A stretch of DNA of 64,000 nt from Dehalococcoidia bacterium. GTDB lineage: Bacteria > Chloroflexota > Dehalococcoidia > Lucifugimonadales > UBA3495. Location of the stretch: positions 2,985,240-3,049,239 of the forward strand of contig CBDDED010000003.1 of assembly GCA_965226825.1 (NCBI GenBank). The letters are read 5' to 3'. Below the pieces are notes generated by a model. The model did no database searches. It was given only the letters and a program-made list of their open reading frames with translations, and was not told where the DNA came from. Position numbers and translations under genes: made by a program. Each line of letters begins with the position of its first letter. The first letter of the stretch is position 1. Shown here in pieces: positions 3,381 to 50,048 of the stretch.

Positions 3381-3574
3381 GCCGGGATAGCCAAGAACCG
3401 GGCCGAGGGCATGGCCAACATCAAGCAGATATTGATCGAACACACCGGGAATTCGCTGGAGAACAATTCAGGGATGAAGTCGAAGCCCTGGCCGGGAGGT
3501 TTCGAGGCATGTCGGTGGAAGAGGGCTTCAAGGATTTCCTGGACCGGAAGGGTCGGAAACCCCGGGTTTAGTAA
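3381..3574 (+). pseudogene. crotonase gene 3' fragment (duplicate of 1078..1271), frameshifted
   Basis: AAGIAKNRAEGMANIKQILIEHTGNSLE matches the C-terminus of 498..1271. It then loses frame through a small deletion; there is no 5' part. Confidence 0.8.
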
Positions 3575-4102: not shown

Positions 4103-4174
4103 TTGGGCCCGGCTTAATGAGGCTCGGCGGGCCGCTCGGAAAATGCAACTGCCCGCTGAAGCCGGATTCGGCGA

Positions 4175-5560
4175 TCAGTCATTGTCAAACTCTTCGGGCA
4201 TCAGGACAAATTCGGGGTAGGATTCAATGCCCAATTCCGCGGCGTCCTGACCCAACTCTTCTACCTGCCGCGACACCCTGGCGCCCATCGTCAGGGCCAT
4301 TACTTTCCACAGCACCCACGAGGTCCCGAACACGAAAACTCCAACGGCTGCCACCCCGGCTAGCTGCGCTAGAATGTTGCCGCCGGCGGCGATACAAACA
4401 GCCAGGGTGCCCCAAATGCCAGCGAACAGGTGGGCTGGCACCGCTCCTACTACATCGTCCAGCTTGACAATCTCCAGGAGCTTGATGGCGCAGGTGCACA
4501 GGACCCCACCAATGGCGCCGATGACGACCGCCCAATAGTGGTCGACGAAATCCGGGCCGGCCGTAATCGATACCAGCCCGGCGAGCGCGCCATTCAGGCA
4601 GGCAAACAGGTCGATGCGCCCAAGGACTGGGCGTGCGATCAACAGGGCAGCGATGGACCCGGCGGCGGCGGCCAGGTTGGTGTTGACCAGGACGATGCTC
4701 ATAGCCACCGCATCGGAGGCGCTGCCCAGCGCCAACTGTGATCCGCCGTTGAAGCCGAACCAGCCGAACCACAGGATAAAAACGCCCAATGTCACCAATA
4801 CGACATTGGAGGGTGGGGTAGCCCGGACCGCGCCGTCACGGCGGAATTTGCCGAGCCTTGGCCCGACTACCACCATACCGGCAAGGGCTGCCCAGCCTCC
4901 GGTGCTGTGCACGATAGTTGAACCGGCGAAGTCCTGGAATCCCAACTGGTCCAGCCACCCTCCGCCCCAGGTCCATGCGCCGACGATGGGATAGATGGCG
5001 GCGGTGAGGAACAGCGTGAATAGGAAAAATGCCCACAGCTTCACGCGTTCCGCCAGGGCCCCCGACACTATGGACGCCGCGGTGGCCACAAAAACCATCT
5101 GGAAAAACCAGTCCGACATAACGGAGTGGCCGGCGTCAACCACGGTCTGGAGCGCGCCCTCATCTCCGGCCAATAAGGCTATCTCGTCGGCGGACGGTCC
5201 GTAGAGGAAGTGAAATGACCCGATGACATACTGGACATCGACGTACATCAGGTTGTAGCCGATAAAGAAGTAGGCCAGGCCGGCGATGGAGTAGAGACCG
5301 ATGTTCTTGAGGCAGATCATGGAGGCGTTTTTGGTGCGGACGGAGCCAGCCTCGAGCATAGTGAACCCGGCGCACATCCACATGACCATCGCTCCCCAGA
5401 TCAGGAACGAGAAGGTGTTGATGATGAACTGCGTCTCATCGCTAACGCCGGCCGCATGAGCAACCGACGGCCACCCAAAGAGGAAACCCAGGGATAGGAG
5501 CACTGCTACCGCCAGGAAGGCAACCCGAAAGTGTTGAGGAATGACTTTTAAAATCATCAT
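4175..5560 (-). CDS. amt: ammonium transporter (Amt family)
   Basis: 461 aa, multi-TM, with a signal-like N-terminus. Contains Amt motifs such as AGFTMLEAGSVRTKN and VHSTGGWAALAG. Confidence 0.92.
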   Translation of the reverse strand: MMILKVIPQHFRVAFLAVAVLLSLGFLFGWPSVAHAAGVSDETQFIINTFSFLIWGAMVMWMCAGFTMLEAGSVRTKNASMICLKNIGLYSIAGLAYFFIGYNLMYVDVQYVIGSFHFLYGPSADEIALLAGDEGALQTVVDAGHSVMSDWFFQMVFVATAASIVSGALAERVKLWAFFLFTLFLTAAIYPIVGAWTWGGGWLDQLGFQDFAGSTIVHSTGGWAALAGMVVVGPRLGKFRRDGAVRATPPSNVVLVTLGVFILWFGWFGFNGGSQLALGSASDAVAMSIVLVNTNLAAAAGSIAALLIARPVLGRIDLFACLNGALAGLVSITAGPDFVDHYWAVVIGAIGGVLCTCAIKLLEIVKLDDVVGAVPAHLFAGIWGTLAVCIAAGGNILAQLAGVAAVGVFVFGTSWVLWKVMALTMGARVSRQVEELGQDAAELGIESYPEFVLMPEEFDND

Positions 5561-5815
5561 CCGTACCCGAAGGTCTGCATTGCGAATGACCGGCGTTAGC
5601 TTACCAAAAATTTAGCGTTTTGGGCCTCTTGCGCCGCCGGTATCTGCGGTTCACCAGATGGGGGTTCGAGCCTACGCAGCAGGTATGTGGAGGTAGCCAG
5701 GGCAGCTCAGCAGTTGCTCGGGGCAATATCACCCGTGTCCGGCGTTGGATTTTGAGCGGGAGACGACGCGCGGCTCGGCCTTGGTGGGCCCAGCTTCTAT
5801 GCTGAGTGTCCGGGC

Positions 5816-7084
5816 TCAGGGAATAAAAAGGTAGACGACGGGTAGGCTGGCAACATCGGTGACGCTGGAATTGGTATGGTGCGATACGTGAACGTGCCCG
5901 GTGCCGCAGTCGCCACAGGAGATGGCCCCAATGATGCCGCTGAAATCGCTGGTGGCGGTGAGGGCGTCCCGGAGCTTGGCGCGGTCGATGAATAAAGTAT
6001 TCCCATCGGCAACGGGCACGTCGTCTACCGCCCGGAGGAGAATAGTGGCGGCGTCATAGGCGTGAGCCAGGTAGGCGGATGTTGGCGCCCCACCGTACTT
6101 CTCGCGATAGTCGCCGAAGAGTTCTTCGCCGCTCTTGCCGGTCGCCTCGTTGTTGTTGCCGGTGAAATGGGATTCCGGGCCTGGGAAGTAAACGCCGTCC
6201 GACTCCGGAAGGGAGAGGAAATTGGAGACCAGCAGGGCCGAGCCGCCGATCAGCGTCACTCCTTCGAGCCCCGAGGTTTGGTCGATTTGGCGGACTATAT
6301 GTGCGCCCTCGGCGGGGAAAAGCGGGGAAAAGCGGGGGAAAAAGCCCGTCGGGCGAGCCGGCGGCAATTTAGGTCAGGACGGGGAGCATGTCCGGGTCGC
6401 CTCTGTTGGTGGCGACAGTGGCGACGGAGCCGCCAAGCTCCTCGAAGGAGGCAGTGAAAGCGCCGGTGAGGCCGGATGTGTACGGGTCACCATCGTGAAT
6501 AGCAGCCATGGTGCGCAGACGGCGTTCGTTGTAAGCAAAGATGGCTACCGCCCGTGCTTGGTAGAGATCATTGTGGGCAGTCCGGTAGTAGCCGGGATGG
6601 TAGTTGGACCCCGCGGCGCCGTTGAGGTCGGAAGTAAGCGAAGGGGACGTGGTGGAGGGAGCGACCATCACGAGGCCGGCCTTGCTGAGCATCGGCGAAG
6701 CGGCGGCGGCAGCGACTGAGCATGAAGCGCCAATGACGCCGACGACTCGGGGGCCGCTGGGCACAGAATTGGCCGCGGCGCGGCCTCCCTCTCCGGTTCA
6801 GAGACAGTCGAGGCCTGCGCCCATCGAGACATTGTGCCCTTGTTAGGCCATAGTCCGCCAACGCGAGCATGACACCCCGCTGACTGGGAACGCCCAGATC
6901 CCCGATACCCGACAGCACCGCCATACAACGAATCTGTATATCATCGCCGGGAGCCACTTCCACGGCGCCAAGGGGGCCCGCTTCGAATTTCTCCGTGCCG
7001 CAGGAAACCCAGGCAAGCGCCACGAGAGAAAGCAGGCCAAGAAGGAAAATGGGCTTGAAACCGGGGCTGTGGAACCTTCGGATA
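5816..7084 (-). pseudogene. ABC-type (LivK-like, branched-chain amino acid type) periplasmic substrate-binding lipoprotein gene, multiply disrupted
   Basis: Recognisable pieces lie in three frames: signal/lipobox ..LLSLVALAWVSCG; ..PRVVGVIGASCS..; ..GLEGVTLIGGSALL..AYLAHAYDAATILL. In-frame TGA and TAA codons and at least 2 frameshifts are present. Confidence 0.75.
6312..6343. repeat. Tandem decamer GCGGGGAAAA x3 (imperfect) inside the SBP pseudogene
   Basis: Directly visible. It coincides with one of the frame changes of the pseudogene. Confidence 0.8.
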
Positions 7085-7147
7085 TTTTAAAATCCCCGGT
7101 CCGTGGCGCTCCGGTCGTGGCACTCCTGTCGTGGGAGGCCAACAGCC

Positions 7148-7612: not shown

Positions 7613-8822
7613 ATGGACAGCATCATAGAGAGGTGTTGCGGGCTGGACGTGCACAAGAAGTCGGTGGTGGCTTGCGCCGTCACCCCCGAGGGCCAGGAAG
7701 TCCGCACTTTCCGCACCATGACCAAAGACCTTCTGGAATTGTCCGACTGGCCAAGGACCACCGGGTGACCCACGCGGCCATGGAGAGCACCGGGGTCTAC
7801 TGGAAGCCGGTCTACAATCTGTTGGAGGCGGACTTCACCGTCTGGGTGGTCAACGCACACCACATGAAGGCGGTGCCGGGGCGCAAGACCGACGTGAAGG
7901 ATGCCGAGTGGATCGCCGATCTGCTGCGACATGGTCTGTTGCGGCCCAGCTTCATCCCGGACCGACCCCAGAGCGGGAACTGCGGGAACTGACCCGCTAC
8001 CGGCGGAGTCTGATCCAGGAGCGCACCCGGGCGGCGAACCGGATTCAACAGGTGCTGGAGGGGGCTAACATCAAGCTGGGATCGGTGGCCTCCAACGTGC
8101 TGGGGGTATCGGGACGGGCCATGCTGGCATCGCTGGCGCAGGGGGAGGAAGACCCCAAGGCATTGGCCGACCTGGCCCAGGGGAAGCTCCGGGATAAGAT
8201 TGGCGAACTGGAGGAGGCGCTGCGGGGCGTAATGGGCCCGCATCAACGCTTCATGTTGAGCCGCCTGCTGCGCCACTTCAGTTTCCTGGACGAGGAAATC
8301 GATGCTCTGAGCGAGGAGGTGGCCCAGCGGGTGGACCCTTTTGAGGAGATAGTGGCGGCGGTGGACGCCATTCCGGGGGTGGGGCGGCGCACCGCCGAGG
8401 TCATCGTGGCGGAGATGGGCACGGACATGAGCCGGTTTCCCAGTGCGGGCCACCTGGCTTCCTGGGCCGGGGTGTGTCCGGGGAACAACCGGAGCGCGGA
8501 GAAGCATAAGCGGGCCCCCACGACAAAGGGCAACAACTGGCTGAAGCCGGCCTTGGTGGAGGCGGCCAAGGCGGCGGGACGGACCAAGACCTATCTGGGG
8601 GCCCAGTACCAGCGCCTCGCCCGGCGCATCGGGGCCAACCGGGCGGCCATGGCAGTAGCCCACTCCATCGCCGTCATCCTCTACCAGGTCATCAAGACCG
8701 GAAAGCCCTTCTTAGACCTGGGCCAACAGTACTTCGAACAACGCCAAGGCGCCGCCGCCACCCGCCGGTATGTCCGCCAACTCGAACGCCTCGGCCACCA
8801 AGTCACACTACAACCAGCCTGA
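7613..8822 (+). pseudogene. IS110-family DEDD recombinase/transposase gene with two frameshifts
   Basis: MDSIIERCCGLDVHKKSVVAC.. (frame 1) shifts near 7750 to ..THAAMESTGVYWKPVYNLLE.., and again near 7965 to ..ELRELTRYRRSLIQERTRAANRIQ.. and the C-terminal ..IPGVGRRTAEVIVAEMG.. domain. Confidence 0.85.
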
Positions 8823-8840
8823 ACACGCTATTTTCATAGT

Positions 8841-8864
8841 AATGACGGGGGACAATCGAAAGAC
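8841..8864. repeat. Right remainder of the REP/MITE interrupted by IS110
   Basis: AATGACGGGGGACAATCGAAAGAC completes the unit begun at 7361-7391. Confidence 0.75.
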
Positions 8865-9066
8865 ACTAAGGCCAACAGCCGGGACCATCGCCTCCACACA
8901 CCGGAGGACTCTTCGAAGCTAACTACATCAGAAGGTTGGCCCTCTGTAAGAATGACGGAACGCGTGCGCGGTTGGGCATCTGGCGACCTGCCGTAATATT
9001 CGATTCAGAATTCGCCCGACGCATTGGAATGGGGTTGCCCCGTTGCCCGCGTTACCCTTCAAATTG

Positions 9067-9999
9067 TCACCGGATCACCAACACCGGTAGGCTGGAGTGG
9101 CGCACCACGCGGTCCGTTACGCTGCCCAACACCAACCGCCCTATGCCGCTGCGGCCGTGGGTGGTCATCACCACCAGGGAAGGTTGCTCCATCGCTTTGT
9201 CTATGATGACCTGGGCTACATTCTGGCTCAGTTGATGGTAGGTGGCTACTTCGTGAACGTTGTTGACTGCCAGCCGGCCCTTTACACCGGACAGGTATGC
9301 GCTCACCTCGCCGGCGTCGGCGTCCACCATTTCATTGGCCGACATAGGTGCGGAGTCCGCAGCGGCCCCCATCCGGAGAGTGGCGGCGCTCAGATGATGG
9401 CGATAGTAATCTGCAGTTGGCGTAACCCGCAGCAGCGATATGGGGACGGTCAATGCGGCGGCCATCCCCGCGGCGTGGGGCAGGGACAGCTCCGCACGGG
9501 CGGACCCGTCCAACGGCACCAGCACCGTCTTGAGCGAAGTTTCCGCCGATGCCGGGTGGGCGGCATTGGCGCGGACGATGAGCATGGGGTTGGAGACAGT
9601 GTGGAGGACCTTGTCGGCGACGCTGCCCAGCGCCCAGCGGGCGATCCCGCCTCGCCCGTGGGTTGACATCACAACCAGCGCATCCGGGTCGGCGCTGGCC
9701 AGGGCGACGATGGCGTCGGACGGCGCGCCGTACAGCAATGAAACGGATGCCGCATTGCCAGCCGCCTCCAGGCGTTCCCGGATGCTCGTCAGGTAGGTTT
9801 CCGAACGCCGCCATGCATCCGACAGCATCTCGCTGACGACCTGACTCGTGTGCCGGTCATGCACCGCCGGCGGCAGAATGTCGTAGGCCTCAATCAGTTC
9901 GATGGGGACTGACATCGAACTGGCGACGAACTGGCAGAAGGGCAAAGCCTGCTCGGATAGCTCCGACCCGTCCAGCGGAACGATTACTTTGGAATACAT
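9067..9999 (-). CDS. universal stress protein, tandem UspA domains
   Basis: MYSKVIVPLDGSELSEQAL.. and a second ..TVLVPLDGSARAE.. half, each ending in ..THGRxGIxRxxLGSV....S..PVLxxR. Confidence 0.88.
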   Translation of the reverse strand: MYSKVIVPLDGSELSEQALPFCQFVASSMSVPIELIEAYDILPPAVHDRHTSQVVSEMLSDAWRRSETYLTSIRERLEAAGNAASVSLLYGAPSDAIVALASADPDALVVMSTHGRGGIARWALGSVADKVLHTVSNPMLIVRANAAHPASAETSLKTVLVPLDGSARAELSLPHAAGMAAALTVPISLLRVTPTADYYRHHLSAATLRMGAAADSAPMSANEMVDADAGEVSAYLSGVKGRLAVNNVHEVATYHQLSQNVAQVIIDKAMEQPSLVVMTTHGRSGIGRLVLGSVTDRVVRHSSLPVLVIR

Positions 10000-10135
10000 G
10001 GTGATTGCTCGCCCCCTGGTCCGTATTGAAAGGCATCTGATGAGCAACGATAGATTACCATTAACCGGAGCGATGGGTTAGTAAGTCCGCCAGGGCAATC
10101 GCATTTACAAAGCCAATACGCGAGTAACCCCCACG

Positions 10136-10315
10136 CGTCTTTCTCGCCGCAGCGGGAATCCAGAGCCCTTCCCCACATCCACGTACGTGTGGCAATGCAG
10201 GAGTGGTCTACATGGGACCGGCCTGCTTGGCTGGGAGGCGAGGCGTCCTACGTATCCTAATCAAGTCTATTGAGGGAAGGGCTCTGGATTCCCGCTGCGG
10301 CGAGAAAGACGGGGG
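10136..10315. repeat. MITE-like unit: inverted pair of REP motifs around a ~110-bp core
   Basis: ..TTTCTCGCCGCAGCGGGAATCCAGAGCCC (10136-10168) and GGGCTCTGGATTCCCGCTGCGGCGAGAAAGACGGGGG (10279-10315) are inverted copies. Confidence 0.75.
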
Positions 10316-10378
10316 TGGGATTGTGCTCCCATCCTTGCTTCTCCTACTCGCGGGAGGGAGGACATTTAGGGCGCACTA

Positions 10379-10545
10379 GCCGCAGCGAGAATCTAAAGCC
10401 CTGATCATGCGCCAAGACGGTTGAACCAACCAAGACGCGTCGGGTGGACAGGTCGACGTCCCACCTGGACCATCCCTGCAATCCCCCATCATATCGGATG
10501 GGAGAAAGGGCTCTGGATTCCCCCCGCGGGGAGAATGACGGTGGG
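10379..10545. repeat. MITE-like unit with the same core as 7258-7360 and 59666-59772
   Basis: Core ..CTGATCATGCGCCAAGACGG..GACAGGTCGACGTCCCACCTGGA.. lies between a diverged inverted REP and a forward REP. Confidence 0.7.
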
Positions 10546-10624
10546 GGATTTAATGACACCTGCGGCGTGCCTGGTGTGGTACGCTTTTCGGCGGAAATGA
10601 GACGCCGCAAATCCGGAGCCAGAC

Positions 10625-11830
10625 TTGGCAGAGTCGGTCAGTAACCGCCACCACTGGACAACCCTTGTAGTCACCCTGTTGCTGGGGTTGCCCGCCGCCG
10701 CGCTCCTGTTTTCGGGCAGTCACATCAATCCACTCGCCGCCGCCTGCGTATACGGAGTGGGTATTTTGGCCGGCGCTTCCCTGGGCCGCCGAGGTGGCCG
10801 AACTCGACATTTCGGCGTCTCTGGCTATCGCTATTCTCGCCTTGCTCGCCATTCTCCCGGAATATGCCATCGAGTCGGTGCTCGCCTGGGACGCCGGCGC
10901 GTCGTTCAATACCGAGACTCGAGAAATCACGGCAGAGACGCAATGAGTGGCGGCCAACGTAACCGGGGCCAACCGGTTGCTTATCGGCGTGGGTTGGTCC
11001 GTCGTTATCCTGATCTACTGGCTCAAACACCGGGGCGTTCTGGATTTGCGTGGAAAGATGGGGCCCGCGGTGACCTTTCTGACGGTAGCAACGCTTTTGA
11101 CATTTGTCATCTTCTTCAGGCGGGAGTCCATATCCTGCTTGCGGCGGCTCTCATCGGCATCTACATCGCCTACGTGTGGATCAGTTCCACCAGGCCTGCA
11201 GAAGAGCCCGAACTCATCGGCGCTGCGGCGATGATCGGGGCCTTGCCCGCGAAGTGGCGCCGGACGATGGTCGTTTTTTTGCTCGTGTATGCCGCGGGCG
11301 TAATCGTAATCGCCGCGGAGCCCTTTGTGGAAGGACTCGTAGAGGCTGGCGAGGGCTTGGGCGTAGACGATTTCATACTCATCCAGTGGGTCGCGCCGCT
11401 GGCTTCCGAGACCCCGGAGATCATCGTGGCCGTGCTCTTCGGCTTGCGGGCCAATCCCGCTGCTGGTCTGACGGTGCTGATCTCTTCTGAAGTTAACAAG
11501 TTCACCTTGCTGGTAAGCAGCATGGTTGTGATATTCAGCGCATCGGCGGGCCAGATAATCGCATTCCCATTGGACGGCAGGCAGGCCATCGAGTTCCTGC
11601 TGACGACCGCGGTTGCTTTGTTCGGTCTTGTGTTGATCGCCAGGCGGACTGTCGACTGGCGGGCGGGGTCGGCGTTATTGGGCCTGTTCGTTGTTCACCT
11701 GTTCTTCCCTCAGCCGCAACACCGCTTGTGGATCACGTACGGGTATTTTGGACTGACGATATTGCTGATCATCCTGGACTGGCGCCGGGTCAAATTCCTG
11801 GTCCGCGAGGAGCGGCAGCAACCGGATTAG
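10625..11830 (+). pseudogene. Ca2+/cation antiporter (CaCA, Na_Ca_ex repeats) gene, disrupted
   Basis: The protein-like sequence switches frame near 10790 (..WAAEVAELDISASLAIAILALLAILPEYAIE..) and back near 11100. It carries an in-frame TGA at 10944-10946 (..ETQ*VAANVTGANRLLIG..). The C-terminal half is good (..APLASETPEIIVAV..). Confidence 0.7.
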
Positions 11831-12066
11831 CGGCCGCCCTCCAGGATATGGTCACGTCCATACCCAGGGCGGCGGCGCGGGATGAAGGCACCCGGACCAA
11901 GGATAGGCAGTAGTGGGGATGGTGGGAAAAGTCGGCGTCCGCTGCGTTTAATTCAACAGCGGCTATTGGTCTAATTTGGGGCGGGTCAAGCACCGGGGGC
12001 TCAGCGTTGGGCCATCAGAAGGCTGGGTAACCGCCCAAGTTGGTAGTCTGGCGGGAGTGCGCTCCC

Positions 12067-13347
12067 TCAGCTGAGGCCGAATTGGTCTCTGGCGTTTCCG
12101 CACATCATCTGGGCGATGATGGGGGGATCTATGTCTGCCTGGGTGAGGGCTTGGATGGCATCCCAGGCGCTGGTGGTGTCATGGTGGGGGTAGCGGGAGC
12201 CCCAGACGATTTTCTTGGCGAAGGAGTGCGGCAGCTCCTGGATCAACCGCTCCTCGGCGTCGAAACCGAGCATGACGCGGCCCTCCTCCCACATTTCCTC
12301 CGGGTCTGTCCTGACCGGGTAGTAATGTTGAAGAGGAATCACCCGCGTCGAAGCCTCCATTTTCTCCAGGACTTCTTCCATCCAGGACGCCTTCCCGTGG
12401 GCTACCACCACCTTCATATCGGGGAACCGCTGCATAACCGTATAGCCCACTAACGTGGATGCGACGAACAGGTGGTTGTCGAGCCAGTGGGAGAGTATCG
12501 GCGCCACCGGATGCCCCATCGGGACCATCCCGGTCGCCGGAGATACCCGGTTTCGGTCGCCGGTGCTACCGCCCGCGTCGGGGCCTCCGCCACCGCCCCC
12601 CAGGGCGTTGGTCTGCGAGAGCCGCCCCTTGACCTTTTCGATGAAGGGACCGTGGGACGTCCACTCCGGGTTCCACAAACCGGCGGCAGGGTGCACCGCG
12701 GCGGCCATCCCTAAACTTTCCAGTTCATTCCACAGCGGCTCGTAGTAGGGGTGAGTGAGGTACCGCCCCTCCATGAACATGGGGCGGATGAATGCGCCGC
12801 GGAAACATTGGATTCCGGCGGCGCGTCGCAACTCCGCCAGGGCGAAGTCCATGTTCCCGAGGGGGACCATCGCGGCAGCGAAGAGGCGGTCGGGGGCTGC
12901 CTGGCAGAAGTCTGCAACCCAGTCGTTGTATGCCCGCGCCAGGGCGTAGGCTACGTCCGGGTCTTCGACCAGGTGGAAACCTTCGGCGAACCACGTGGGG
13001 TAAAGGAAGGTCTGGTCGATACCCATGGCGTCCATGTCCCGGAGCCTCGCCCGCGGGTCCCAGGCGCCTTCACTCATTGGATGGCGGACGTCCGGGTCCA
13101 GTTCACCGACGGAGTCCCAGGTCATTCCGGGCTTCCAGATGGCGTGTCGGGGGATGTTGGGGTTGCCGCTGTCCCGAAACACCTGGCCGTTGACTTTCAG
13201 GTACGAGTCAAACCGTCCTTCTTCCCGCCAGAGGGCGTGTTTGCCCAGGACGCGGTACTCGGGTTCCAGGTATTTCTCCCACAGCTCCCGGGGCTCCACG
13301 ACGTGGGAGTCGCTGTCGAAAACCTCGAAGTCTTTCCTGGTAGTCAT
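12067..13347 (-). CDS. amidohydrolase-2 family metal-dependent hydrolase
   Basis: N-terminus ..FEVFDSDSHVVEPRELWEKYLEPEY.. is typical of the PF04909-type family. 426-aa intact ORF. Confidence 0.8.
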   Translation of the reverse strand: MTTRKDFEVFDSDSHVVEPRELWEKYLEPEYRVLGKHALWREEGRFDSYLKVNGQVFRDSGNPNIPRHAIWKPGMTWDSVGELDPDVRHPMSEGAWDPRARLRDMDAMGIDQTFLYPTWFAEGFHLVEDPDVAYALARAYNDWVADFCQAAPDRLFAAAMVPLGNMDFALAELRRAAGIQCFRGAFIRPMFMEGRYLTHPYYEPLWNELESLGMAAAVHPAAGLWNPEWTSHGPFIEKVKGRLSQTNALGGGGGGPDAGGSTGDRNRVSPATGMVPMGHPVAPILSHWLDNHLFVASTLVGYTVMQRFPDMKVVVAHGKASWMEEVLEKMEASTRVIPLQHYYPVRTDPEEMWEEGRVMLGFDAEERLIQELPHSFAKKIVWGSRYPHHDTTSAWDAIQALTQADIDPPIIAQMMCGNARDQFGLS

Positions 13348-42125: not shown

Positions 42126-43316
42126 TTGAGAATCGCCCTGTGGCTAAGCGTGCTGGTTGCGCTGGCCCTAATCTTGGCCTGCGGAACCCCAACAGCTACT
42201 CCGACAGAGCTACCTCTTACCGAGACCCAGGAGCAGTCTCCGTCTACACCGGCAGAGCAGTCAGCGACCGGGACCCCGGAGCCGACCACAGGCACGTCGA
42301 CAATGCCACCGCTTACCGACATCCCAAAGCCAACGGCAGCTACGACGGCAGAGCGGCCAGCGACGTTGACCGTGGAGTCGCCTGCGGAAACGACGCCGGG
42401 ACCGCTGGCAACGGAGGTTTCAGAGCGGCCAGCGGCGACACCGGCGGAACAACCGGCGACCGATTCCACTTCGAACGATCCATCTGCGCTTCTCGCAATG
42501 CTGCCAGCCGGGGCCTCGCAGTTTACGTTTGTTAACCTCGAAGCCGCAATGGAGAGGCCTGCTTTTCGCGAGGTGGTTGAGTTTCAACTCAGCGACTTCG
42601 TTAACCTGGACGAGATACTGCTTGCCGAGGAGTTGCTTCGCTCCACGCACGTCAGCGCTATAGTTATGGGGGATTTTTACACCCGGTTCGAATGGGCCTG
42701 CATCTTAAGCGGCGATTTTGCTCTGGTTCAGGGCGCCCTGCGTTTGGCCGCCTCCGTTGATTCAGTGGGCGGTTTGTCTGCCAGCATGATTGATGCGCAC
42801 CGGGACGTGGAAATCTTCTCCCTCGTCAGAAAGACGCGTCGTTCGGAAATCCAAGTGTATCTGGCCATTCTGGACCGTAAGACGCTGGCAGCAAGCCAAG
42901 ACTTGGAACTGGTGAAGGAGATGATTGAGCGGCAGCGGGACGGCCTCAGCCTACCGCAGTCTCTTGCGGTAATGCTGGAGGAATGGGGACACCCCGATTA
43001 CCTGGATGCCTTGAGATTGGGAAGCGATCCTAACCAAACGTTGCCGGGCCCTCTGGGCGCCGCGAAGTACTACGCCTTCCACGCTACGCTGGGAGAAAAT
43101 GCGACCACTACGATGCGCGTTCTGCAACAGTTCAGCGACGATGACCAAGCCGCCGCTGCTGCCGCCTGGCTTGGTGAACAGGAGGATGCGTTCTGGCGGA
43201 GGATCGGTTACGGAAGCGGCGCCCAGATTGACCAGTGGAGAGCGAAAGGGCAGTCGGCCTACGGCGAGGCCAATGTTGCCGACGAGGATGTTCTTGGTCT
43301 GATTCAGCCCAACTAG
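42126..43316 (+). CDS. hypothetical lipoprotein with Thr/Pro/Glu-rich linker
   Basis: MRIALWLSVLVALALILACG lipobox signal, a ~110-aa low-complexity region and then a globular part. Confidence 0.65.
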   Translation: MRIALWLSVLVALALILACGTPTATPTELPLTETQEQSPSTPAEQSATGTPEPTTGTSTMPPLTDIPKPTAATTAERPATLTVESPAETTPGPLATEVSERPAATPAEQPATDSTSNDPSALLAMLPAGASQFTFVNLEAAMERPAFREVVEFQLSDFVNLDEILLAEELLRSTHVSAIVMGDFYTRFEWACILSGDFALVQGALRLAASVDSVGGLSASMIDAHRDVEIFSLVRKTRRSEIQVYLAILDRKTLAASQDLELVKEMIERQRDGLSLPQSLAVMLEEWGHPDYLDALRLGSDPNQTLPGPLGAAKYYAFHATLGENATTTMRVLQQFSDDDQAAAAAAWLGEQEDAFWRRIGYGSGAQIDQWRAKGQSAYGEANVADEDVLGLIQPN

Positions 43317-43497
43317 CCTGAGCAGGCCCGGCCGGCGCAGCCCGGTCGAGGGGGCTTGGGCTTTTCAGATCGGGCATCCCCCAAGTTTTACTTCGACCCT
43401 GGTTCCTTCCCTTTCGAGGCGCATGGGGGTGATTGCAGACTTTGTTTGTAGAACGGGCTCGAAGCAGGTAACAAGACGGCGGCGAGGGGGAACACCG

Positions 43498-43704
43498 TCA
43501 AGCGTTGTTTCCGTTGGCAGCGGGACTGGACTGCCTTTCCGACGGCGGGGGTTCGTCGAACGGACGGCCGTCTGCCCTGGCTTGATTGAACCTATTCAGC
43601 CAGGCTTCCCATTCTTGACGCTCCAGTTGACGTCCTCGCTGTTCGCCCCTTGCCTCCGCTCTTTTCCGAAGCCACTCCGCGAACCATTCCGAGAGCATGG
43701 ACAT
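43498..43704 (-). CDS. small protein, truncated paralog 1 of 44088..44492
   Basis: Shares ..LSEWFAEWLRKRAE..RGRQLERQEWEAWLNRFNQARADGRPFDEPPPSE.. with the other two copies. A stop codon sits 14 codons upstream of the ATG, so the TM region is missing. Confidence 0.45.
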   Translation of the reverse strand: MSMLSEWFAEWLRKRAEARGEQRGRQLERQEWEAWLNRFNQARADGRPFDEPPPSERQSSPAANGNNA

Positions 43705-43781
43705 AACCTCAACTACAACAGTTAGGAAAGTGGTTCTAAGGGGCGGCTATTGGCAGGTTGATATGGCGACGGGGAAAACGG

Positions 43782-44003
43782 TCAAGCAATGTGTGCGTAG
43801 GAAGCAGTTCTAGACTGCTTTTCCGACGGAGGGGGTTCATCGAACGGACGGCCGTCTGCCCTGGCTTGATTGAACCTATTCAGCCAGGCTTCCCATTCTT
43901 GACGCTCCAGTTGGCGCCCTCGCTCTTGCCCTCTAATCTCCTCTCCAATCTCCCTTAGCTCCCTTTTTTTCCGAAGCCACTCTGCGAACCATACCGAGAG
44001 CAT
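43782..44003 (-). CDS. small protein, truncated paralog 2
   Basis: Same conserved C-terminal module and the same upstream stop position as paralog 1. Confidence 0.45.
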   Translation of the reverse strand: MLSVWFAEWLRKKRELREIGEEIRGQERGRQLERQEWEAWLNRFNQARADGRPFDEPPPSEKQSRTASYAHIA

Positions 44004-44087
44004 GAAAATAACCTCTACTACAACGGTTAAGAGAGTGATTCCAAGAGGAGGCTATGCGCAGGTTGACAAGCCAACGGGGGTAACCGG

Positions 44088-44492
44088 TCAAGCGTTGTTT
44101 TCGTTGGCAGCGGGACTGGACTCCCTTTCCGACGGCGGGGGTTCGTCGAACGGCCGGCCGTCTGCCTGAGCCTGCTTAAACCTGTTCAGCCAGGCTTCCC
44201 ACTCGCGGCGTTCCAGTTGGCGTCCTCTTTTCTCCGCTCTTTTCTGAAGCCACTCTGAGAGCATGAAGATAACCTCTACGATAACTGTTGTGCTTACGAC
44301 TGATATGAGGACGAATGGGCTGGAATTACGCCCTATAGCGATGAAAGTCTCGAAAAAATTATCATGGGTACGGACGATGATTTCATACCACGACACGATT
44401 CCCGTATGCAATCCCACCTGGAGCGGGAAGAGGACCCAGAAAAATATGCGCCATGATGCAGGCACGATCCAAATGGATTCTCTGTCTTGCAA
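44088..44492 (-). CDS. small membrane protein (134 aa), full-length member of the tandem family
   Basis: Two hydrophobic segments (IFFWVLFPLQVGLHTGIV, FVLISVVSTTVIVEVIFML) followed by the conserved RGRQLERREWEAWLNRF..DGRPFDEPPP tail. Confidence 0.55.
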   Translation of the reverse strand: MQDRESIWIVPASWRIFFWVLFPLQVGLHTGIVSWYEIIVRTHDNFFETFIAIGRNSSPFVLISVVSTTVIVEVIFMLSEWLQKRAEKRGRQLERREWEAWLNRFKQAQADGRPFDEPPPSERESSPAANENNA

Positions 44493-44620
44493 GCAATCGC
44501 TCCGTTGCTATTTCCGTTGTTGGTGCATTTGTGGGCCATGATGGTAGCACATAGGTGTCACACTCTTGACGTGAGAGTGTTTGCGGTGCGATACACTCCG
44601 GAAAAGACATGAAATGAAGG

Positions 44621-45142
44621 GTGGTTAATTTGACAGAAGAACGGATTAACACCGAGGACGAGCCCCGGATCGCCGAGCGGGTCAAGTTCTGGGAAGAAGA
44701 GGACCGAATCAACCAGGAGCTAATTCCCCGAGTTATCCGCCAGCATGAATTGCTCACCAGCCACATCGCCGACCACGAAAACCTGCCTTTGATAGCGGGC
44801 AACGCCATTAGCGAGGCTTTGGCCGAAGCTCGGGAGGAACAGAGCCAGCAATTGGCAGCGGCTAGAGCCGAGCGGGAAGAGCAGGGCCGGCAGCAAGAAG
44901 CAGAATTGGCGGCGGTCCGAACCGAACGGGTAGAACAGAACCGTCGACACGAAGCGGAGTTGGCGGCGGCCAAGGCCGAGCGTGAAGAGCAGGACCGTCA
45001 ATACCAAACGTCATTGGCCGCGTTGCAAGAACAAACCCTTAAGGTGCGAAACCTGATCATCGGGGTCTCCGCCGGAGCCGCCGTCATCAGCGTCGCCGCA
45101 ATAGTTGTAGCTATTCTTTCCTACGTTGGGGGAACGGCATGA
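44621..45142 (+). CDS. coiled-coil protein with C-terminal transmembrane anchor (173 aa)
   Basis: Repetitive ..AEREEQGRQQEAELAAVRTERVEQNRRHEAELAAAKAEREEQDRQ.., then LIIGVSAGAAVISVAAIVVAIL. Start codon uncertain (GTG 44621 or TTG 44630). Confidence 0.6.
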   Translation: MVNLTEERINTEDEPRIAERVKFWEEEDRINQELIPRVIRQHELLTSHIADHENLPLIAGNAISEALAEAREEQSQQLAAARAEREEQGRQQEAELAAVRTERVEQNRRHEAELAAAKAEREEQDRQYQTSLAALQEQTLKVRNLIIGVSAGAAVISVAAIVVAILSYVGGTA

Positions 45143-46338
45143 CTATGCAATCATTAAGCTTGCTGCCGGCATTGCAGGAACTTCCTGGCGGCAACGACGG
45201 CACCCGCCAGTCATTTCGGGAGATTATGACCGGTTTGGTGAGCACCGACCGGGCCATGTACGCTGCAGAATTCGCCTCTGCCGTTTCCTTCGGGATGTGG
45301 CCCATTTTTGATGACATTAACGTTGACGATAGCCTAGCCGAATCCTACGCAACCCGCTGGCCTGACATGGCTACCGACCACTCTCTGCACGAAAAGTGGC
45401 AAATGTTGGTGGAGAGTGGACAGGGTACTGGAGAAAGTGAGTGGTTCTACAGTGGGCTAAAGGGGCAACTGGCCGAGTTTAAAGTCCCGGACCTGCTGAA
45501 ACAAGATGGGTTCACCAACATAGATTTCCCTCGAAACGAACAAGGTGAAATTAATCCCACTAATGAGGGCCACGATATCAGTGCTATTGCTCCTGACGGT
45601 CAGGAAGTCCTGATTCAAGTAAAAACCGGCGAATCACTCTCTTCCAGCGACTTCCGGAATCTTATGGTAGAAAACCCGGGCATTAATATTTGGGCAATTG
45701 GCACCGAGTATCACGACAAAGCTGTTAGGGCTGCTGAGTCTGTGCCGGACATGGTAGATAGAATAATAATGGAAATCGGCCCAGACCATGAAGTGGTGGA
45801 CGGGATCACCGATGGCCTAACCACGTTAAGCGCAAACATGGGCATCGACGTACCCGACGGCATTGTGCACATCGTCCCTTTCGCCGGCGCCATCTTTGCC
45901 GGCGCACGGTTGGTTTATAGCGTAATCAAGACCGAGGGGGAGTTCAGAGCGGTTGACCGCACAGCCAAAAACAAGATTCAGGTGGTGCAAAGCCTGACGT
46001 TGATGTCCCGAATGGGAATTAACACCGTTCTTTCAATCGCAGGAGGTAAGGGAGGTGCATTGGGAGGAACGGTGGCAGGAACGTTAGCTGGAACTGTGGT
46101 GCCGGGTGTCGGCAATGCTGTTGGTGGCACGGTTGGAGGGATCGGCGGCGGTATTGTTGGCGCGTTAGTCGGCTGGCGCATGGGGAGGTTCCTGAACCAG
46201 CACCTCCAGCCGCACATGCTCGACCTGGCCCTGAACATTACCGGGCTAGGCCATGACGACCTGTTCTACTACAAGAACAAGGTCCGCATTGACGAGGTAG
46301 CGTTTTCTATCCGACAAACCGCCGGGCAACTGGAGTAG
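45139..46338 (+). CDS. hypothetical protein (399 aa): N-terminal PD-(D/E)xK-like region + C-terminal glycine-zipper membrane region
   Basis: The start overlaps the upstream stop (ATGA). ..GQLAEFKVPD..EGHDISAIAPDGQEVLIQVKTG.. (E...D...QVK order). C-terminus GGKGGALGGTVAGTLAGTVVPGVGNAVGGTVGGIGGGIVGALVGW. Confidence 0.65.
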   Translation: MTMQSLSLLPALQELPGGNDGTRQSFREIMTGLVSTDRAMYAAEFASAVSFGMWPIFDDINVDDSLAESYATRWPDMATDHSLHEKWQMLVESGQGTGESEWFYSGLKGQLAEFKVPDLLKQDGFTNIDFPRNEQGEINPTNEGHDISAIAPDGQEVLIQVKTGESLSSSDFRNLMVENPGINIWAIGTEYHDKAVRAAESVPDMVDRIIMEIGPDHEVVDGITDGLTTLSANMGIDVPDGIVHIVPFAGAIFAGARLVYSVIKTEGEFRAVDRTAKNKIQVVQSLTLMSRMGINTVLSIAGGKGGALGGTVAGTLAGTVVPGVGNAVGGTVGGIGGGIVGALVGWRMGRFLNQHLQPHMLDLALNITGLGHDDLFYYKNKVRIDEVAFSIRQTAGQLE

Positions 46339-46390
46339 GTTCCTCGTCTGCCTGCTCTGCCGGCCGCCACCTGATTTTCCAGCCTGGCGG

Positions 46391-47578
46391 CTACGCTGCG
46401 TCGTCAAAACTTGCCAGGGCTTGTTGGGCGGCGGCTAGGCTGGCGCCGGAGGCAACCTCGAATTCCATGCCGGCCAGGATGCGTTCCAGGGCGGAGAGCA
46501 GGGCGAACACGTTGGCTTCTCTGGCCGATTCGCCCATCAGGCCGATTCGCCAGGCCTTGCCCCGCAGGTCGCCGAGGCCGCCTCCGATTTCTATGTTGTA
46601 GTCGTTGAGCAGCTTGCCCCGCACCCCGGCGTCTTCGATTTCCTCGGGAATCACCACGGTGGTCAGCGGGTTGAGCCGGTAGGCGGGATCGGCCAACAAC
46701 TCCAGCCCCATGGCTTCCAGTCCCGCTCGGAGCGCCCCGGCCGTCCGGGCGTGGCGGCGGATCCGGTTGTCTATTCCTTCTTCCATCATCATCCGCAGCG
46801 ACTCCCGCAACGCGTAGGTCATGGAGATGGGGGAGGTGTGGTGGTAGGCGCGGGTCTGGTTCCAATATTCCTGCAGGTCCTTGAGGTTGAAATAGAAGCT
46901 CTGGACCTTGGACTCCCGTTTATTGATGATCTCCATGGCGCGGGGGCCGATGCTGATTGGCGATAGACCTGGGGGTGCGCCAAGGCACTTCTGGGTGGCG
47001 CTATAGCACACGTCCAGGTCCCACTGGTCCATCTGGACCTCGTGTCCACCCAGGGAGGTGACGGCGTCAACCACCAGAAGAGCGCCGTGTTGATGCACCA
47101 CCTCGGAAACCTCGGTAAGGGGGGTGATCACGCCGGTTGAGGTCTCCGCGTGGACCACGCCGACGGCCTTGACCCGGGGGTGTTTGTCCAGTTCGTCGGC
47201 CAACGCTTGAACGTCAACCGGTTTTCCCCAGGGCGCATCCAGCGTGATGGTCTCCGCGCCGCAGCGTTCGGCGATGTCCGCCAACCTGTCCCCGAAGTAA
47301 CCGTTGCGGCAGACGATCATGGTGTCGCCACGCTCCAGGACATTGGCGCAGGCCGCCTCCATGCCGCCGGTTCCGGTGGATGATAGGGGAACAGTCATGT
47401 AATTTGTGGTGTGAAAGACCTGCCGGAGCATGTGCCCCACTTCATCCATGATCTGGAAGAACTTGGGGTCAAGGTGTCCGACCACCGGCTGGGTCATTGC
47501 CTGAAGCACCCTCGGATGGACGGTACTCGGCCCTGGTCCCAACAAAAGCCTGCTGGGCAGATCTGCTTCATTCATGTG
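46391..47578 (-). CDS. class-V aminotransferase (serine/alanine--glyoxylate aminotransferase type)
   Basis: MNEADLPSRLLLGPGPSTVHPRVLQAM... Internal ATG at 47578 preferred. ..SATQKCLGAPPGLSPIS.. contains the PLP-lysine context. Confidence 0.85.
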   Translation of the reverse strand, partial: HMNEADLPSRLLLGPGPSTVHPRVLQAMTQPVVGHLDPKFFQIMDEVGHMLRQVFHTTNYMTVPLSSTGTGGMEAACANVLERGDTMIVCRNGYFGDRLADIAERCGAETITLDAPWGKPVDVQALADELDKHPRVKAVGVVHAETSTGVITPLTEVSEVVHQHGALLVVDAVTSLGGHEVQMDQWDLDVCYSATQKCLGAPPGLSPISIGPRAMEIINKRESKVQSFYFNLKDLQEYWNQTRAYHHTSPISMTYALRESLRMMMEEGIDNRIRRHARTAGALRAGLEAMGLELLADPAYRLNPLTTVVIPEEIEDAGVRGKLLNDYNIEIGGGLGDLRGKAWRIGLMGESAREANVFALLSALERILAGMEFEVASGASLAAAQQALASFDDAA

Positions 47579-47759
47579 GGTGTCGGTCAAAAGGGTCCTC
47601 CTGTTAACCACCGATGAACTGAATTGTTCCTGCGGCGGGGCAATATCACGCTGCGCGGAACGATGGGTCCAGATTCCTTGCAACGTCTGAGTTGATGAGA
47701 CCAGGCAAAACACCGGGTATGTTTTGGCGAGTCGAAGGCCTGTTCATCCGGACGGGAGC

Positions 47760-48824: not shown

Positions 48825-50048
48825 TCATGGGGCGACTGGAGCCGGCGCGGCGGTGAACTCCTCTCCCACTGCCCAATAGGGACTTGAGCAAGCCGGCGTT
48901 ATCTCATCCAGCCCTCCATGCTCCACGGCCTGCTGGAAGGAGATGGCAAAAGCGCTGAACTGGACCTCATCTCCGACGCGTGCGACAACTCGCCCAGTTG
49001 CGTCGACTATCCCGACTACCCCATCTTCCACGTTCAGCGTAAAAGCGCTTGGCCAGATGATCAGCGCAGGCACCGGCATCTGGGAGCGGTCACTAATGCG
49101 AACAGCGGCATCGACCTCCAGGCATTTTCCGTTCAGCGCCAACGCTCCAACAAAGCGCTCCGCCTCCTGATCTGGCGCCAGCGTCCCATCCTGCCTGGGG
49201 AAGTAGACTTCAACATCCGGCAGGGCTTTGATCTTATTGGCCTGCCACACGGGTCCTGGACAGTCCCCGCCATCATGGTCGAAGAATCCGCCGCCCCCGG
49301 CAATTTCATCCCCAACCTTAACTATAATTCGACCTGCTCCATTGCGGACGTGGACCACGCCGTTGTGAACATGAGGGGTAAACCCAGCAGGCCAAATTAT
49401 CGTGGTGGAACTGTCTTTCAGGCGAAGGCACCGGCCGGCTAAAACCAGCTCTCCAATGCCTGCCGCAGTCATGAGCACCTGGGTACTCGCGATTACAGTC
49501 TTTTGCCTGAGGAACAGGACATCGGGGTCTGACAACCGCAGTTCGGTGGCCTCGTTCCTGGGATCGAAGGCGGTAACCTCGTCGCCCACCAGGAAATAGG
49601 GCTCTGCACAAGCCGCGGACAGCCCCTTTACCAATCCCAGATCCATGGCCTGCTGATATGTGACCGCGGCCCGGCTGAGTCGAACATGGTCTCCGACGTG
49701 CGCAGCGATCCGGCCTAGTCCATCGACTGTCCGCACCGCACCAAATTCCGCTTCGAGTCTGAACGCGCTTGGCCAGATGAGCAACCAGGATGGTCGGGGG
49801 TTGGCAGCATCATTGGAGGGAACTCCAGCACGGGAGGGAACTTCGGCGCGTAGACACCCATCGTTCAGGACCAACTGCCCGGCGAAGTATTCTCCCCCAC
49901 TGTCGGTTCCCAGCGGCGCGTCGTGCAGCGGGAAAACTATTGAAGAGGCCGACCAGGCCTCTGCCAACGGAGTGTCGAGCTTTGGGGAAATCTCTGTAGA
50001 CGATTGATCGAATTCCTGGCTGTCGCTGCATCCGGCGGCCACTACCAC
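48825..50048 (-). CDS. hypothetical lipoprotein with three internal ~120-aa repeats
   Basis: Repeat signature ..L(V/A)L(N/A)G(K/R)CL.....IIWP(S/A)(A/G)F...V.DG.V.(I/V)....GR(I/V)(A/V)..VGDE(V/I).. occurs three times. Lipobox VVVAAGC. The annotated GTG start lacks a signal n-region; an in-frame CTG at 50084 would give MGCLRLVIFSLLVVVAAGC. Confidence 0.65.
   Translation of the reverse strand: MVVAAGCSDSQEFDQSSTEISPKLDTPLAEAWSASSIVFPLHDAPLGTDSGGEYFAGQLVLNDGCLRAEVPSRAGVPSNDAANPRPSWLLIWPSAFRLEAEFGAVRTVDGLGRIAAHVGDHVRLSRAAVTYQQAMDLGLVKGLSAACAEPYFLVGDEVTAFDPRNEATELRLSDPDVLFLRQKTVIASTQVLMTAAGIGELVLAGRCLRLKDSSTTIIWPAGFTPHVHNGVVHVRNGAGRIIVKVGDEIAGGGGFFDHDGGDCPGPVWQANKIKALPDVEVYFPRQDGTLAPDQEAERFVGALALNGKCLEVDAAVRISDRSQMPVPALIIWPSAFTLNVEDGVVGIVDATGRVVARVGDEVQFSAFAISFQQAVEHGGLDEITPACSSPYWAVGEEFTAAPAPVAP

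Follow-up and report, generated by a model that had tools for sequence, protein, structure and literature searches.

A conserved gene pair between glycolate oxidase and aminotransferase genes

We analyzed a pair of overlapping genes in a 64,000-nucleotide stretch of a Dehalococcoidia genome (assembly GCA_965226825.1, contig CBDDED010000003.1, positions 2,985,240 to 3,049,239 of the forward strand); we call this whole stretch the window, and all coordinates refer to it. The genes lie between glcDEF and an aminotransferase gene. A first-pass annotation had proposed here a membrane-anchored coiled-coil protein followed by a nuclease-fold-like protein with a glycine-zipper membrane domain, and had likened the two to abortive-infection systems. 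The open reading frame (ORF) list and the sequence agree on both ORFs and on their overlap, in which the stop codon of gene 1 (TGA, 45140-45142) runs into the ATG of gene 2 at 45139 (ATGA). Both are real genes forming a conserved unit. The ORF list starts gene 1 at GTG 44621 (44621-45142, plus strand, 173 amino acids [aa]). The likely start is TTG 44630, after AGGGTGG; the resulting 170 aa match the length called in close relatives.

44630..45142, plus strand: gene 1, tail-anchored coiled-coil partner (170 aa from TTG 44630)
45139..46338, plus strand: gene 2, membrane protein with a restriction-endonuclease-like domain (399-aa ORF)

The gene 1 product begins with a short head, continues as an 18-aa Arg/Glu-rich repeat, and ends in a C-terminal hydrophobic helix that would act as a transmembrane (TM) anchor. 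This bears out the earlier description of a repetitive Arg/Glu-rich protein with a terminal hydrophobic helix.

44669..44791, plus strand: conserved N-terminal head motif IAERVKFWEEEDRINQELIPRVIRQHELLTSHIADHENLPL, the sole strongly conserved stretch in an alignment of 82 partner sequences
44850..45001, plus strand: tandem repeat of 54 nt (18 aa), an Arg/Glu-rich coiled coil (TRF, 2.8 copies, 73% match)
45053..45127, plus strand: C-terminal TM anchor LIIGVSAGAAVISVAAIVVAILSYV (aa 145-169; Eisenberg mean hydrophobicity <H> 0.73, hydrophobic moment muH 0.03)

Across the partner proteins the head reads V.FWEEQD.INQELIPRVIRQ.ELLT.HI..H..LP, and the terminal hydrophobic helix is likewise found throughout. 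The coiled coil differs greatly in length between homologs; partner ORFs at other loci range from 51 to 433 aa, fragments and N-terminal fusions included. The K/R residues lie on the N-terminal side of the anchor, and the coiled coil is therefore probably cytoplasmic. The protein has 328 homologs and matches nothing at threshold in Pfam, NCBIfam, PADLOC, PHROGs, or PDB; a search with the 71-aa head alone returned only short proteins. In some lineages, the partner has gained an N-terminal module. Latescibacterota partners (L018 4855-5988, L020 4682-5983, and L048 4765-5988) are fused to two domains of the VOC/glyoxalase/bleomycin-resistance type (Pfam Glyoxalase, 7.6e-16), and several Dehalococcoidia partners (e.g., those of L064, L046, L009, L028, and L068) have an extra domain of ~130 aa with a faint bacterial PH signal (bPH_3). 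A modular N terminus of this kind is commonly seen in sensors, and the partner may be one.

The anatomy of gene 2 was drawn from family alignments and AlphaFold2 (AF2) models; statements on conserved residues refer to an alignment of 88 sequences.

45139..45309, plus strand: N-terminal peptide MTMQSxxLLPALxELP (aa 1-38) and hydrophobic helix segA (aa 39-57, invariant E44), from invariant alignment columns
45310..45864, plus strand: acidic soluble domain (aa 58-242) with a PD-(D/E)xK-like core, from the AF2 model, Foldseek, and invariant residues
45865..45975, plus strand: TM1 (aa 243-263, invariant R257), then the conserved basic loop KTEGEFRAVDRTAKNK (aa 264-279), from alignments and a mean Kyte-Doolittle (KD) hydropathy of 1.44
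45976..46173, plus strand: TM2, glycine-rich loop, and TM3, a glycine-zipper hairpin (aa 280-345), from alignments
46174..46335, plus strand: C-terminal helical domain (aa 346-399) with the invariant or near-invariant DDLFYYKNK (46255-46281), from invariant columns

By its composition (<H> 0.56, muH 0.15, KD 1.11), segA is about as TM-like as TM1 (<H> 0.47, muH 0.25) and TM3 (<H> 0.66, muH 0.15); AF2 confidence is low over it and the N-terminal peptide. D273 and R274 of the basic loop are invariant. The long glycine-rich segment noted at first pass is present at aa 301-345, where it is hydrophobic and glycine-zipper-like; the window allele has a 17-aa Gly-rich expansion in the TM2-loop-TM3 hairpin. 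Mean pairwise identity is 0.69 to 0.74 in the membrane and C-terminal module, against 0.48 in the nuclease-fold core, and the C-terminal helical domain is the most conserved part of the family (0.74). Since this module is both the best conserved and rich in invariant polar residues, it probably does more than simply anchor the protein.

More than 529 homologs of the 399-aa protein were found at 40 to 66% identity, all of them unnamed and devoid of Pfam domains, and an exhaustive hidden Markov model (HMM) search with the domain profile recovered 352 clusters (50% identity level) from 1.84 billion representatives. No family reached threshold in Pfam, NCBIfam, or PADLOC, and full-length and domain profiles found nothing among PDB sequences. 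In PHROGs, only the glycine-rich segment matched, to tape-measure proteins (1e-6 to 1e-4). The TM2-loop-TM3 hairpin gave subthreshold matches to Gly-zipper_Omp and DUF1269; DUF6861, matched in 7 of 22 members, was dismissed because its matches map to the glycine zipper, which is of low complexity. A literature search found no description of this architecture.

A restriction-endonuclease-like domain with an invariant acidic-lysine center

The full-length AF2 model was mediocre (predicted local distance difference test [pLDDT] score 70; predicted template-modeling [pTM] score 0.46), and the Rossmann-type neighbors that Foldseek returned for it were rejected as noise. Because these neighbors were meaningless, the domain was modeled alone. 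The model of aa 62-222 (pLDDT 85.3, pTM 0.76) has three short helices followed by an alpha-beta-beta-beta-alpha-beta-alpha-beta arrangement; in whole-protein numbering, the elements are helix 101-122, strands 126-129, 147-150, and 156-162, helix 169-178, strand 184-188, helix 189-201, and strand 209-213.

45475-45477 (E113), 45574-45576 (D146), 45616-45624 (Q160/K162), and 45706-45708 (E190), plus strand: candidate active-site residues, from alignment and model

E113 lies in helix 1, D146 just before strand 147-150, and Q160-V-K162 at the end of strand 156-162. The E/D/QxK order read at first pass thus stands: E113, D146, and K162 are invariant in 88 of 88 sequences, and E190 nearly so. Chance falls far short of producing such features. 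The named PDB neighbors in Foldseek are almost all PD-(D/E)xK proteins (EcoO109I, AvaII, SfsA, ACE1/Cas4, Can2, YaeQ, influenza PA endonuclease, EndoMS, and AdnAB), with RPB5 in addition. Neighbors in BFVD, with probabilities up to 1.0, include MmcB-like, NOV_C, Mrr, endonuclease I, RecU, and VRR-NUC proteins and Holliday junction resolvases. Several members also show weak Mrr_cat and NOV_C HMM matches over the motif, on aa 114-165 (helix 1 to strand 3). We accept from the model and its neighbors that the central domain probably has the PD-(D/E)xK (restriction-endonuclease-like) fold, as the first reading had supposed.

Assignment to a described family is another matter. For Mrr_cat (PF04471), the best score was 17.5 bits (P0024) against a gathering cut-off of 21, with weak matches in 5 of 22 members and none in the window protein; for NOV_C (PF13020), it was 13.3 bits against 22.1, with weak matches in 6 of 22. 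By these curated cut-offs, the domain belongs to neither. Alignment of the domain profile to E. coli Mrr with hhalign gave a probability of 1.3 and left the motif region unaligned, a comparison of low power given its single-sequence target. What the domain has in common with the two families is an alpha-beta-beta-beta-alpha-beta core with an acidic residue in helix 1, D before strand 2, and (Q/S)xK in strand 3. It differs in being strongly acidic and set between hydrophobic helices, as well as in its scores.

Copy number of the domain varies. P0008, P0021, P0024, P0084, and P0121 (~528 to 540 aa) have it in two tandem copies, and P0136 and P0169 show three matched stretches; in P0121, the first copy is without the motif D and K, and the second keeps both. 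In five distant homologs (P0248, P0251, P0255, P0257, and P0269), the core GxKGKLFE...WDI...LQAKATDS and the C-terminal hydrophobic helices are kept, and a long lysine-rich, apolipoprotein-like amphipathic N terminus lies in the same polypeptide. This N terminus may do, within one fused protein, what the separate coiled-coil partner does elsewhere.

The pair is a two-gene unit with a patchy distribution

A genome scan yielded 77 loci of the family. In 74 of them, a partner homolog lies directly upstream of the 399-aa homolog, with a gap of 4 to 23 nt or an overlap, and the pair is a conserved unit in the sense first proposed. Clustering of all ORFs within 6 kb at the 77 loci revealed no third conserved gene; the next real cluster, a luciferase-like oxidoreductase, is present at 16. 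Two large extra ORF clusters were rejected as further partners, being antisense shadow ORFs of the pair.

The family spans six or more phyla; it is carried by metagenome-assembled genomes (MAGs) from Dehalococcoidia/Chloroflexota, Latescibacterota, Bryobacterales, Gemmatimonadetes, Thermoanaerobaculia, and Acidimicrobiales, a patchy pattern that suggests horizontal transfer. MPMM01 (L067) is SAR202 bin22 from the sponge Aplysina aerophoba, and MKWU01 (L088) is the metagenome assembly of the same sponge (PMC5649159). Sponge or coral origin is verified for these two loci; from their isolate names, the remaining MAGs appear to share it. Among 241 million records of JGI metagenomes, only 5 loci were found. 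A motif scan with tblastn found no relative in IMG/VR, where two exact C-terminal motifs were required and divergent copies could be missed.

Some genomes carry more than one copy. L017 has two complete pairs in tandem (2310-4328 and 5386-7101; 78% and 82% identical), and two dispersed copies, with 399-aa proteins 32 to 73% identical, occur on contigs OZ220741.1 (L024 and L048) and CBDBHA010000002.1 (L045 and L064) and in MAG S7_336 (L016 and L028). The 399-aa ORF is split at L008, L032, L061, L064, L066, and L067, and only C-terminal remnants are left at L071, L073, and L075; that of L075, 44 aa long, still occupies the same slot behind the aminotransferase. Either the split or reduced copies have become pseudogenes, or frameshifts in long-read assemblies make them look so.

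Cassette exchange of the nuclease-fold core

The history of the core is best seen in the closest relatives. L083, L090, L091, and L092 share the gene order of the window, in which glcD-E-F are followed by a 396-aa lipoprotein-like gene, a variable stretch, the pair, the aminotransferase, a short-chain dehydrogenase/reductase (SDR), and trp genes. Between the window and L083, protein identity is 99% for GlcD, 92% for GlcE, 97% for GlcF, 98% for the aminotransferase, 99% for the SDR, and 99% for TrpB; it is 88% for the coiled-coil partner and only 56.5% for the 399-aa protein. By blastn, window positions 44578-45414 and 45835-47700 align to L083 DNA at 88 to 89%, and 45415-45834 does not align.

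45415..45834, plus strand: swapped low-GC cassette in gene 2 (aa ~93-232), from blastn, GC at third codon positions (GC3), and the synonymous substitution rate (dS)

These 420 bp are exactly the low-GC part of gene 2 (GC 0.49, GC3 0.49; the remaining gene has GC3 0.66 to 0.67). The lack of DNA similarity between near-identical genomes, together with the lower GC, indicates that the nuclease-fold core is a recombining cassette. The first-pass annotation had seen instead a low-GC insert of ~3 kb at 47 to 50% GC. This was overstated, GC of 0.49 to 0.52 being confined to two patches (~44000-44750 and ~45250-46000), and a recent insertion does not agree with the presence of the pair in the same glcDEF/aminotransferase slot in L083 and L090 to L092 and, inverted relative to the window, in L009, L037, and L072 (~77% aminotransferase identity).

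Exchange is not limited to one comparison. Four core types occur among six alleles with conserved segments at least 80% identical, and P0003 is a mosaic within the core. Among the 88 sequences, flank and core identity correlate at only r = 0.49; flanks agree at 85% or more in 64 pairs, and 8 of these pairs have cores less than 50% identical. Close homologs tell the same story: the partner has ~24 at 87 to 100% identity, and the 399-aa protein has one at 99% and then none above 66%. Nei-Gojobori estimates of dS and of the ratio of nonsynonymous to synonymous rates (dN/dS) were as follows.

Flanking genes (aminotransferase, GlcF): dS 0.05-0.37, dN/dS 0.05-0.11
Gene 2 ends (aa 1-92, 233-300, 346-399): dS 0.10-0.85, dN/dS 0.08-0.64
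Core, window versus relatives: dS 1.5-3.2 (saturated), dN/dS 0.17-0.34
Core, L083 versus L090: dS 0.06, dN/dS 0.47
Gene 2 ends (aa 1-92, 346-399), L083 versus L090: dS 0.39-0.47, dN/dS 0.17-0.28

Gene 2 is thus an intragenic mosaic of old allelic lineages, diversified by recombination. The partner does not covary with the core, from which it follows that the specificity of the core is probably directed at something external rather than at the partner. Cassette exchange between near-identical genomes fits an arms-race gene and is the strongest argument that the pair may be a conflict system.

One kind of conflict would be competition between bacteria. Glycine zippers are typical of some membrane-active bacteriocins (cf. 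the CoCoNuT paper), and one can envision a polymorphic-toxin-like module in which the glycine-zipper protein is a bacteriocin-like membrane toxin and the partner an immunity or delivery factor. Cassette-type recombination would fit this too, being typical of polymorphic toxins (PMC3482391). However, the variable part of gene 2 is internal rather than C-terminal, the partner is indifferent to which core has been swapped in, the genes downstream are unrelated metabolic genes with no variable immunity gene among them, and the protein shows neither a secretion signal nor, at threshold, any trafficking or pre-toxin domain. We regard a toxin of this kind as very improbable.

Charge and membrane topology

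The acidic domain (aa 58-242) has a net charge of about -25 (range, -17 to -32 over the 88 sequences). Per 100 aa this is -13.5, compared with -2 to -5 for neighboring cytoplasmic enzymes and -7.1 for the adjacent lipoprotein. The mean number of K+R residues in each segment around the hydrophobic helices is given below.

N terminus: 4.2
After segA: 1.4
Before TM1: 0.0
Loop 264-279: 5.5
Gly loop: 0.1
After TM3: 1.4

Charge and hydrophobicity together fit two arrangements, a four-helix protein with both termini inside and the domain outside, or a two-helix hairpin with the domain inside. A three-TM topology (domain inside, C terminus outside) was ruled out, as it violates the positive-inside rule. 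From these sequence properties, the two sides of the membrane seem about equally probable for the nuclease-fold domain.

An outside location would open a nonimmune explanation, in which the stretch between segA and TM1 is a surface ectodomain, diversified as a phage receptor or under recognition by the sponge or coral host or by competitors, and the pair a niche-specific factor of the envelope or of symbiosis, with signaling to the cytoplasmic coiled-coil partner. The positive-inside pattern would suit such an ectodomain, as would the charge density of the domain and a segA as hydrophobic and nonamphipathic as TM3. In two distant homologs (P0249 and P0265), segA is preceded by an additional N-terminal TM and a basic loop, and the alleles recombine and are apparently host associated in distribution. 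Against this, segA is of marginal hydrophobicity and is not confidently placed by AF2, the five distant homologs with the lysine-rich N terminus have no TM-like segment before the domain, which should be cytoplasmic there, and a sponge or coral source is established for only two loci. An invariant catalytic-type E/D/K triad would also be unexpected in a mere receptor or antigen. It seems unlikely that the domain is simply a surface structure.

Comparison with known systems

The closest functional analogue may be SNIPE, a nuclease bound to the membrane, which cuts phage DNA as it is injected and associates with the tape-measure protein (Saxton et al., bioRxiv 10.1101/2025.11.03.685801). Both have a nuclease-type domain that is, or is predicted to be, permanently tethered to the cytoplasmic membrane, domains diversified between homologs, and a proposed link to phage tape-measure or injection machinery. 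The differences are considerable. SNIPE combines GIY-YIG with DUF4041, whereas the domain here is PD-(D/E)xK-like; there is no sequence match, and neither Pfam family was hit. SNIPE is a single gene with one N-terminal TM, in contrast to a gene pair with a C-terminal glycine-zipper module. Finally, the nuclease is the most conserved part of SNIPE and the membrane-proximal region the least; in the present family, variability is greatest in the core and conservation in the membrane module.

By analogy with SNIPE, the pair might provide direct, nonabortive defense, the tethered nuclease cutting foreign DNA as it enters by injection, conjugation, or transformation, away from the chromosome, and the glycine-rich helices and the partner doing no more than positioning or gating it. 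SNIPE itself is the precedent, and a PD-(D/E)xK fold with an invariant E/D/K center and membrane anchoring is what such an enzyme would need; the acidic surface could keep it off host DNA. The glycine-rich segment resembles membrane-inserting segments of phage tape-measure proteins, although these PHROG matches involve nothing but low-complexity Gly-rich sequence. A net charge of -25 is hard to square with DNA binding, a domain outside the cytoplasm would not meet DNA within the conduit of the tail tube, and the conservation pattern is the reverse of that of SNIPE. Such a tethered entry nuclease strikes us as unlikely.

Other likenesses are more partial. Gly-zipper_Omp (PF13488), Rick_17kDa_Anti (PF05433), and DUF1269 (PF06897) have repeated small-xxx-small or GxxxG motifs in a helical hairpin, but their members are small lipoproteins or membrane proteins that lack both a nuclease-fold domain and the DDLFYYKNK C-terminal domain. 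The weak matches recur, but they reflect low-complexity similarity, and scores stayed below cut-off (Gly-zipper_Omp, at most 16.1 bits versus 25; DUF1269, at most 21.3 versus 26.9). CBASS TM effectors and Cam1-type CARF-TM proteins join a sensor domain to membrane helices with a presumed membrane-disrupting action, and there too the sensor is variable and the effector conserved; here, however, no cyclase, CARF/SAVED, or other signaling gene is linked to the pair, and the CARF_TM model of PADLOC on the partner TM was not significant (E = 0.037). In concept, the pair also recalls ZorAB of Zorya, a membrane-embedded complex with a long cytoplasmic coiled coil of variable length (bioRxiv 10.1101/2023.12.18.572097). 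In the present pair, however, the coiled coil forms a tail-anchored protein of its own, linked soluble nucleases or helicases are absent, and PADLOC gave no ZorA or ZorB match. The parts are thus known kinds of domain in a new combination, and the family is undescribed in the libraries and literature searched.

A possible membrane conflict module

We tentatively favor, at somewhat less than an even chance, reading the pair as an autonomous two-gene membrane conflict module, most likely for immunity against phages or other invaders, in which a sensor is coupled to a membrane effector. It is the combination of features that leads us to conflict: an autonomous unit scattered over phyla, with paralogs and decayed copies, modular heads, and a cassette-swapped domain that nonetheless keeps an invariant catalytic-type center. 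A sensor with a membrane effector or transducer is preferred over a simple tethered nuclease because the recognition part is variable and the membrane part conserved.

We imagine that gene 1 would use its coiled coil, of variable length, to hold the small conserved head in the cytoplasm from a tail anchor, the head being preceded in some lineages by tandem VOC/glyoxalase domains or a PH-like domain. Gene 2 would have two halves. The specificity half would be the fast-diversifying, cassette-swapped restriction-endonuclease-fold domain with its intact E...D...(Q/S)xK center, and the output half the conserved TM1, basic loop, glycine-zipper hairpin, and C-terminal helical domain. The variable domain would recognize, and possibly cleave, an invader-derived molecule; the membrane module might then oligomerize through its glycine zippers to perturb the membrane or might signal to the coiled-coil partner.

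Several results weigh against an immune role. Neither protein matches the models of PADLOC-DB v2.0.0 (best E values, 0.022 to 0.037 over short segments). Among the two nearest genes per locus (141 genes from the 77 loci), defense genes are not enriched: metabolic families prevail (amidohydrolases, family III CoA-transferases, SDRs, luciferase-like monooxygenases, and aminotransferases), and hits to Uma2, DDE transposase, HicB, methyltransferase, or HEC-01A are few. Defense systems outside islands are known to escape colocalization methods, according to one study (PMC13092281). One Dehalococcoidia clade keeps the pair between glcDEF and the aminotransferase even at ~77% aminotransferase identity, and since this slot has been held so long, the pair looks resident there rather than mobile. 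For the domain itself, no Pfam nuclease model reaches its cut-off, Foldseek E values are all weak (0.0026 or higher), though the enrichment of PD-(D/E)xK proteins among the neighbors is consistent, and the net charge of -25 is unusual and would argue against ordinary nucleic acid binding. Lastly, average dN/dS is below 1 in every segment (0.13 to 0.47), and no positive selection by point mutation was demonstrated.

Some of these results would equally suit a housekeeping or stress-response membrane complex, such as a scaffold, a channel, or a sensor of cations or of the envelope, with no part in conflict and a soluble domain that varies because it is weakly constrained. The metabolic neighbors, the stable slot, and the low dN/dS would be as expected, and an acidic domain could bind cations. 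Weak constraint, however, does not explain replacement of a cassette with clean breakpoints, foreign GC3, and dS several-fold above that of flanking genes, and it leaves invariant E/D/K residues in an otherwise variable domain without a reason. Nor does a housekeeping role sit well with a patchy occurrence across phyla, paralogs and decayed copies, and near absence from general metagenomes. On balance, it is quite improbable. Of the findings that would have spoken against a dedicated two-gene system, a conserved housekeeping context is seen only in part, as the housekeeping-adjacent slot of one clade; the predicted nuclease-type fold and membrane insertion and the unit itself all held.

Within the conflict reading, abortive infection, as suggested at first pass, is one among several forms that fit. 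The nuclease fold, the conserved pairing, and the glycine-zipper segments speak for it; the missing PADLOC model, the metabolic neighbors, the strong negative charge, and a possibly extracytoplasmic domain make it less certain. More speculatively, and with considerable doubt, the pair could represent a new class of membrane immune receptor, spread horizontally among phyla that share the sponge/coral holobiont. Its restriction-endonuclease-fold domain would have been repurposed as a hypervariable, strongly acidic recognition module, exchangeable as a cassette and possibly facing outward, wired through a glycine-zipper channel or transducer to a coiled-coil "ruler" with interchangeable sensor heads. 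Such a receptor would have no described counterpart.

If the pair is an immunity module, it would be a new defense architecture: a membrane-embedded restriction-endonuclease-fold protein whose recognition core is exchanged between strains, together with a tail-anchored coiled-coil protein. Discovery based on gene neighborhoods would miss it, because it lies outside defense islands. The pair is also an apparent niche marker, found in six or more phyla of apparently sponge/coral-associated bacteria and almost absent from general metagenomes, and would be a concrete case of habitat-specific gene sharing in a holobiont where phage exposure is known to be heavy and defense functions enriched (PMC5649159). 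The protein would be a structural oddity without any role in immunity too, as its PD-(D/E)xK domain is strongly acidic, has an intact catalytic-type center, and lies between membrane helices.

Other features of the locus

The stretch just upstream of the pair (43481-44289) seems to be a structurally unstable spot. It holds a unit of ~300 nt in three tandem copies (181-nt core, 78 to 86% identical), which encode minus-strand ORFs at 43498-43704, 43782-44003, and 44088-44492 (68, 73, and 134 aa). The C-terminal motif RGRQLERQEWEAWLNRF(N/K)QA(R/Q)ADGRPFDEPPPSE is common to all three; the 134-aa ORF also has hydrophobic N-terminal helices, and none of the three has a family match. At the same spot, L083 has a single 143-aa copy and an IS66 transposase, and L091 has ORFs of 58 and 146 aa.

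Before these repeats, at 42126-43316 on the plus strand, is the 396-aa ORF, with a lipoprotein-like N terminus (LILACG) and a Thr/Pro/Glu-rich linker. Pfam, NCBIfam, PADLOC, and PHROGs gave no match for this ORF, which was seen in none but the closest syntenic relatives; at 0.34 to 0.55, its dN/dS is the highest among the locus genes compared. On the other side of the pair, a 407-aa ORF (48825-50048, minus strand), with no Pfam hit on record in relatives, is apparently internally duplicated ("...WLLIWPSAFRLEAEFGAVRTVDGLGRIAAHVGDHVRLS..." compared with "...ALIIWPSAFTLNVEDGVVGIVDATGRVVARVGDEVQFS...") and is 90% identical to its L083 counterpart, versus 99% for the adjoining SDR and TrpB.

Mobile or defense-type genes have entered this neighborhood in the syntenic L091, where a DndB-domain gene and a DDE transposase lie downstream of the SDR (9830-13149). 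The otherwise syntenic L083 carries two copies of an IS66 transposase (1-182 and 8118-9431).

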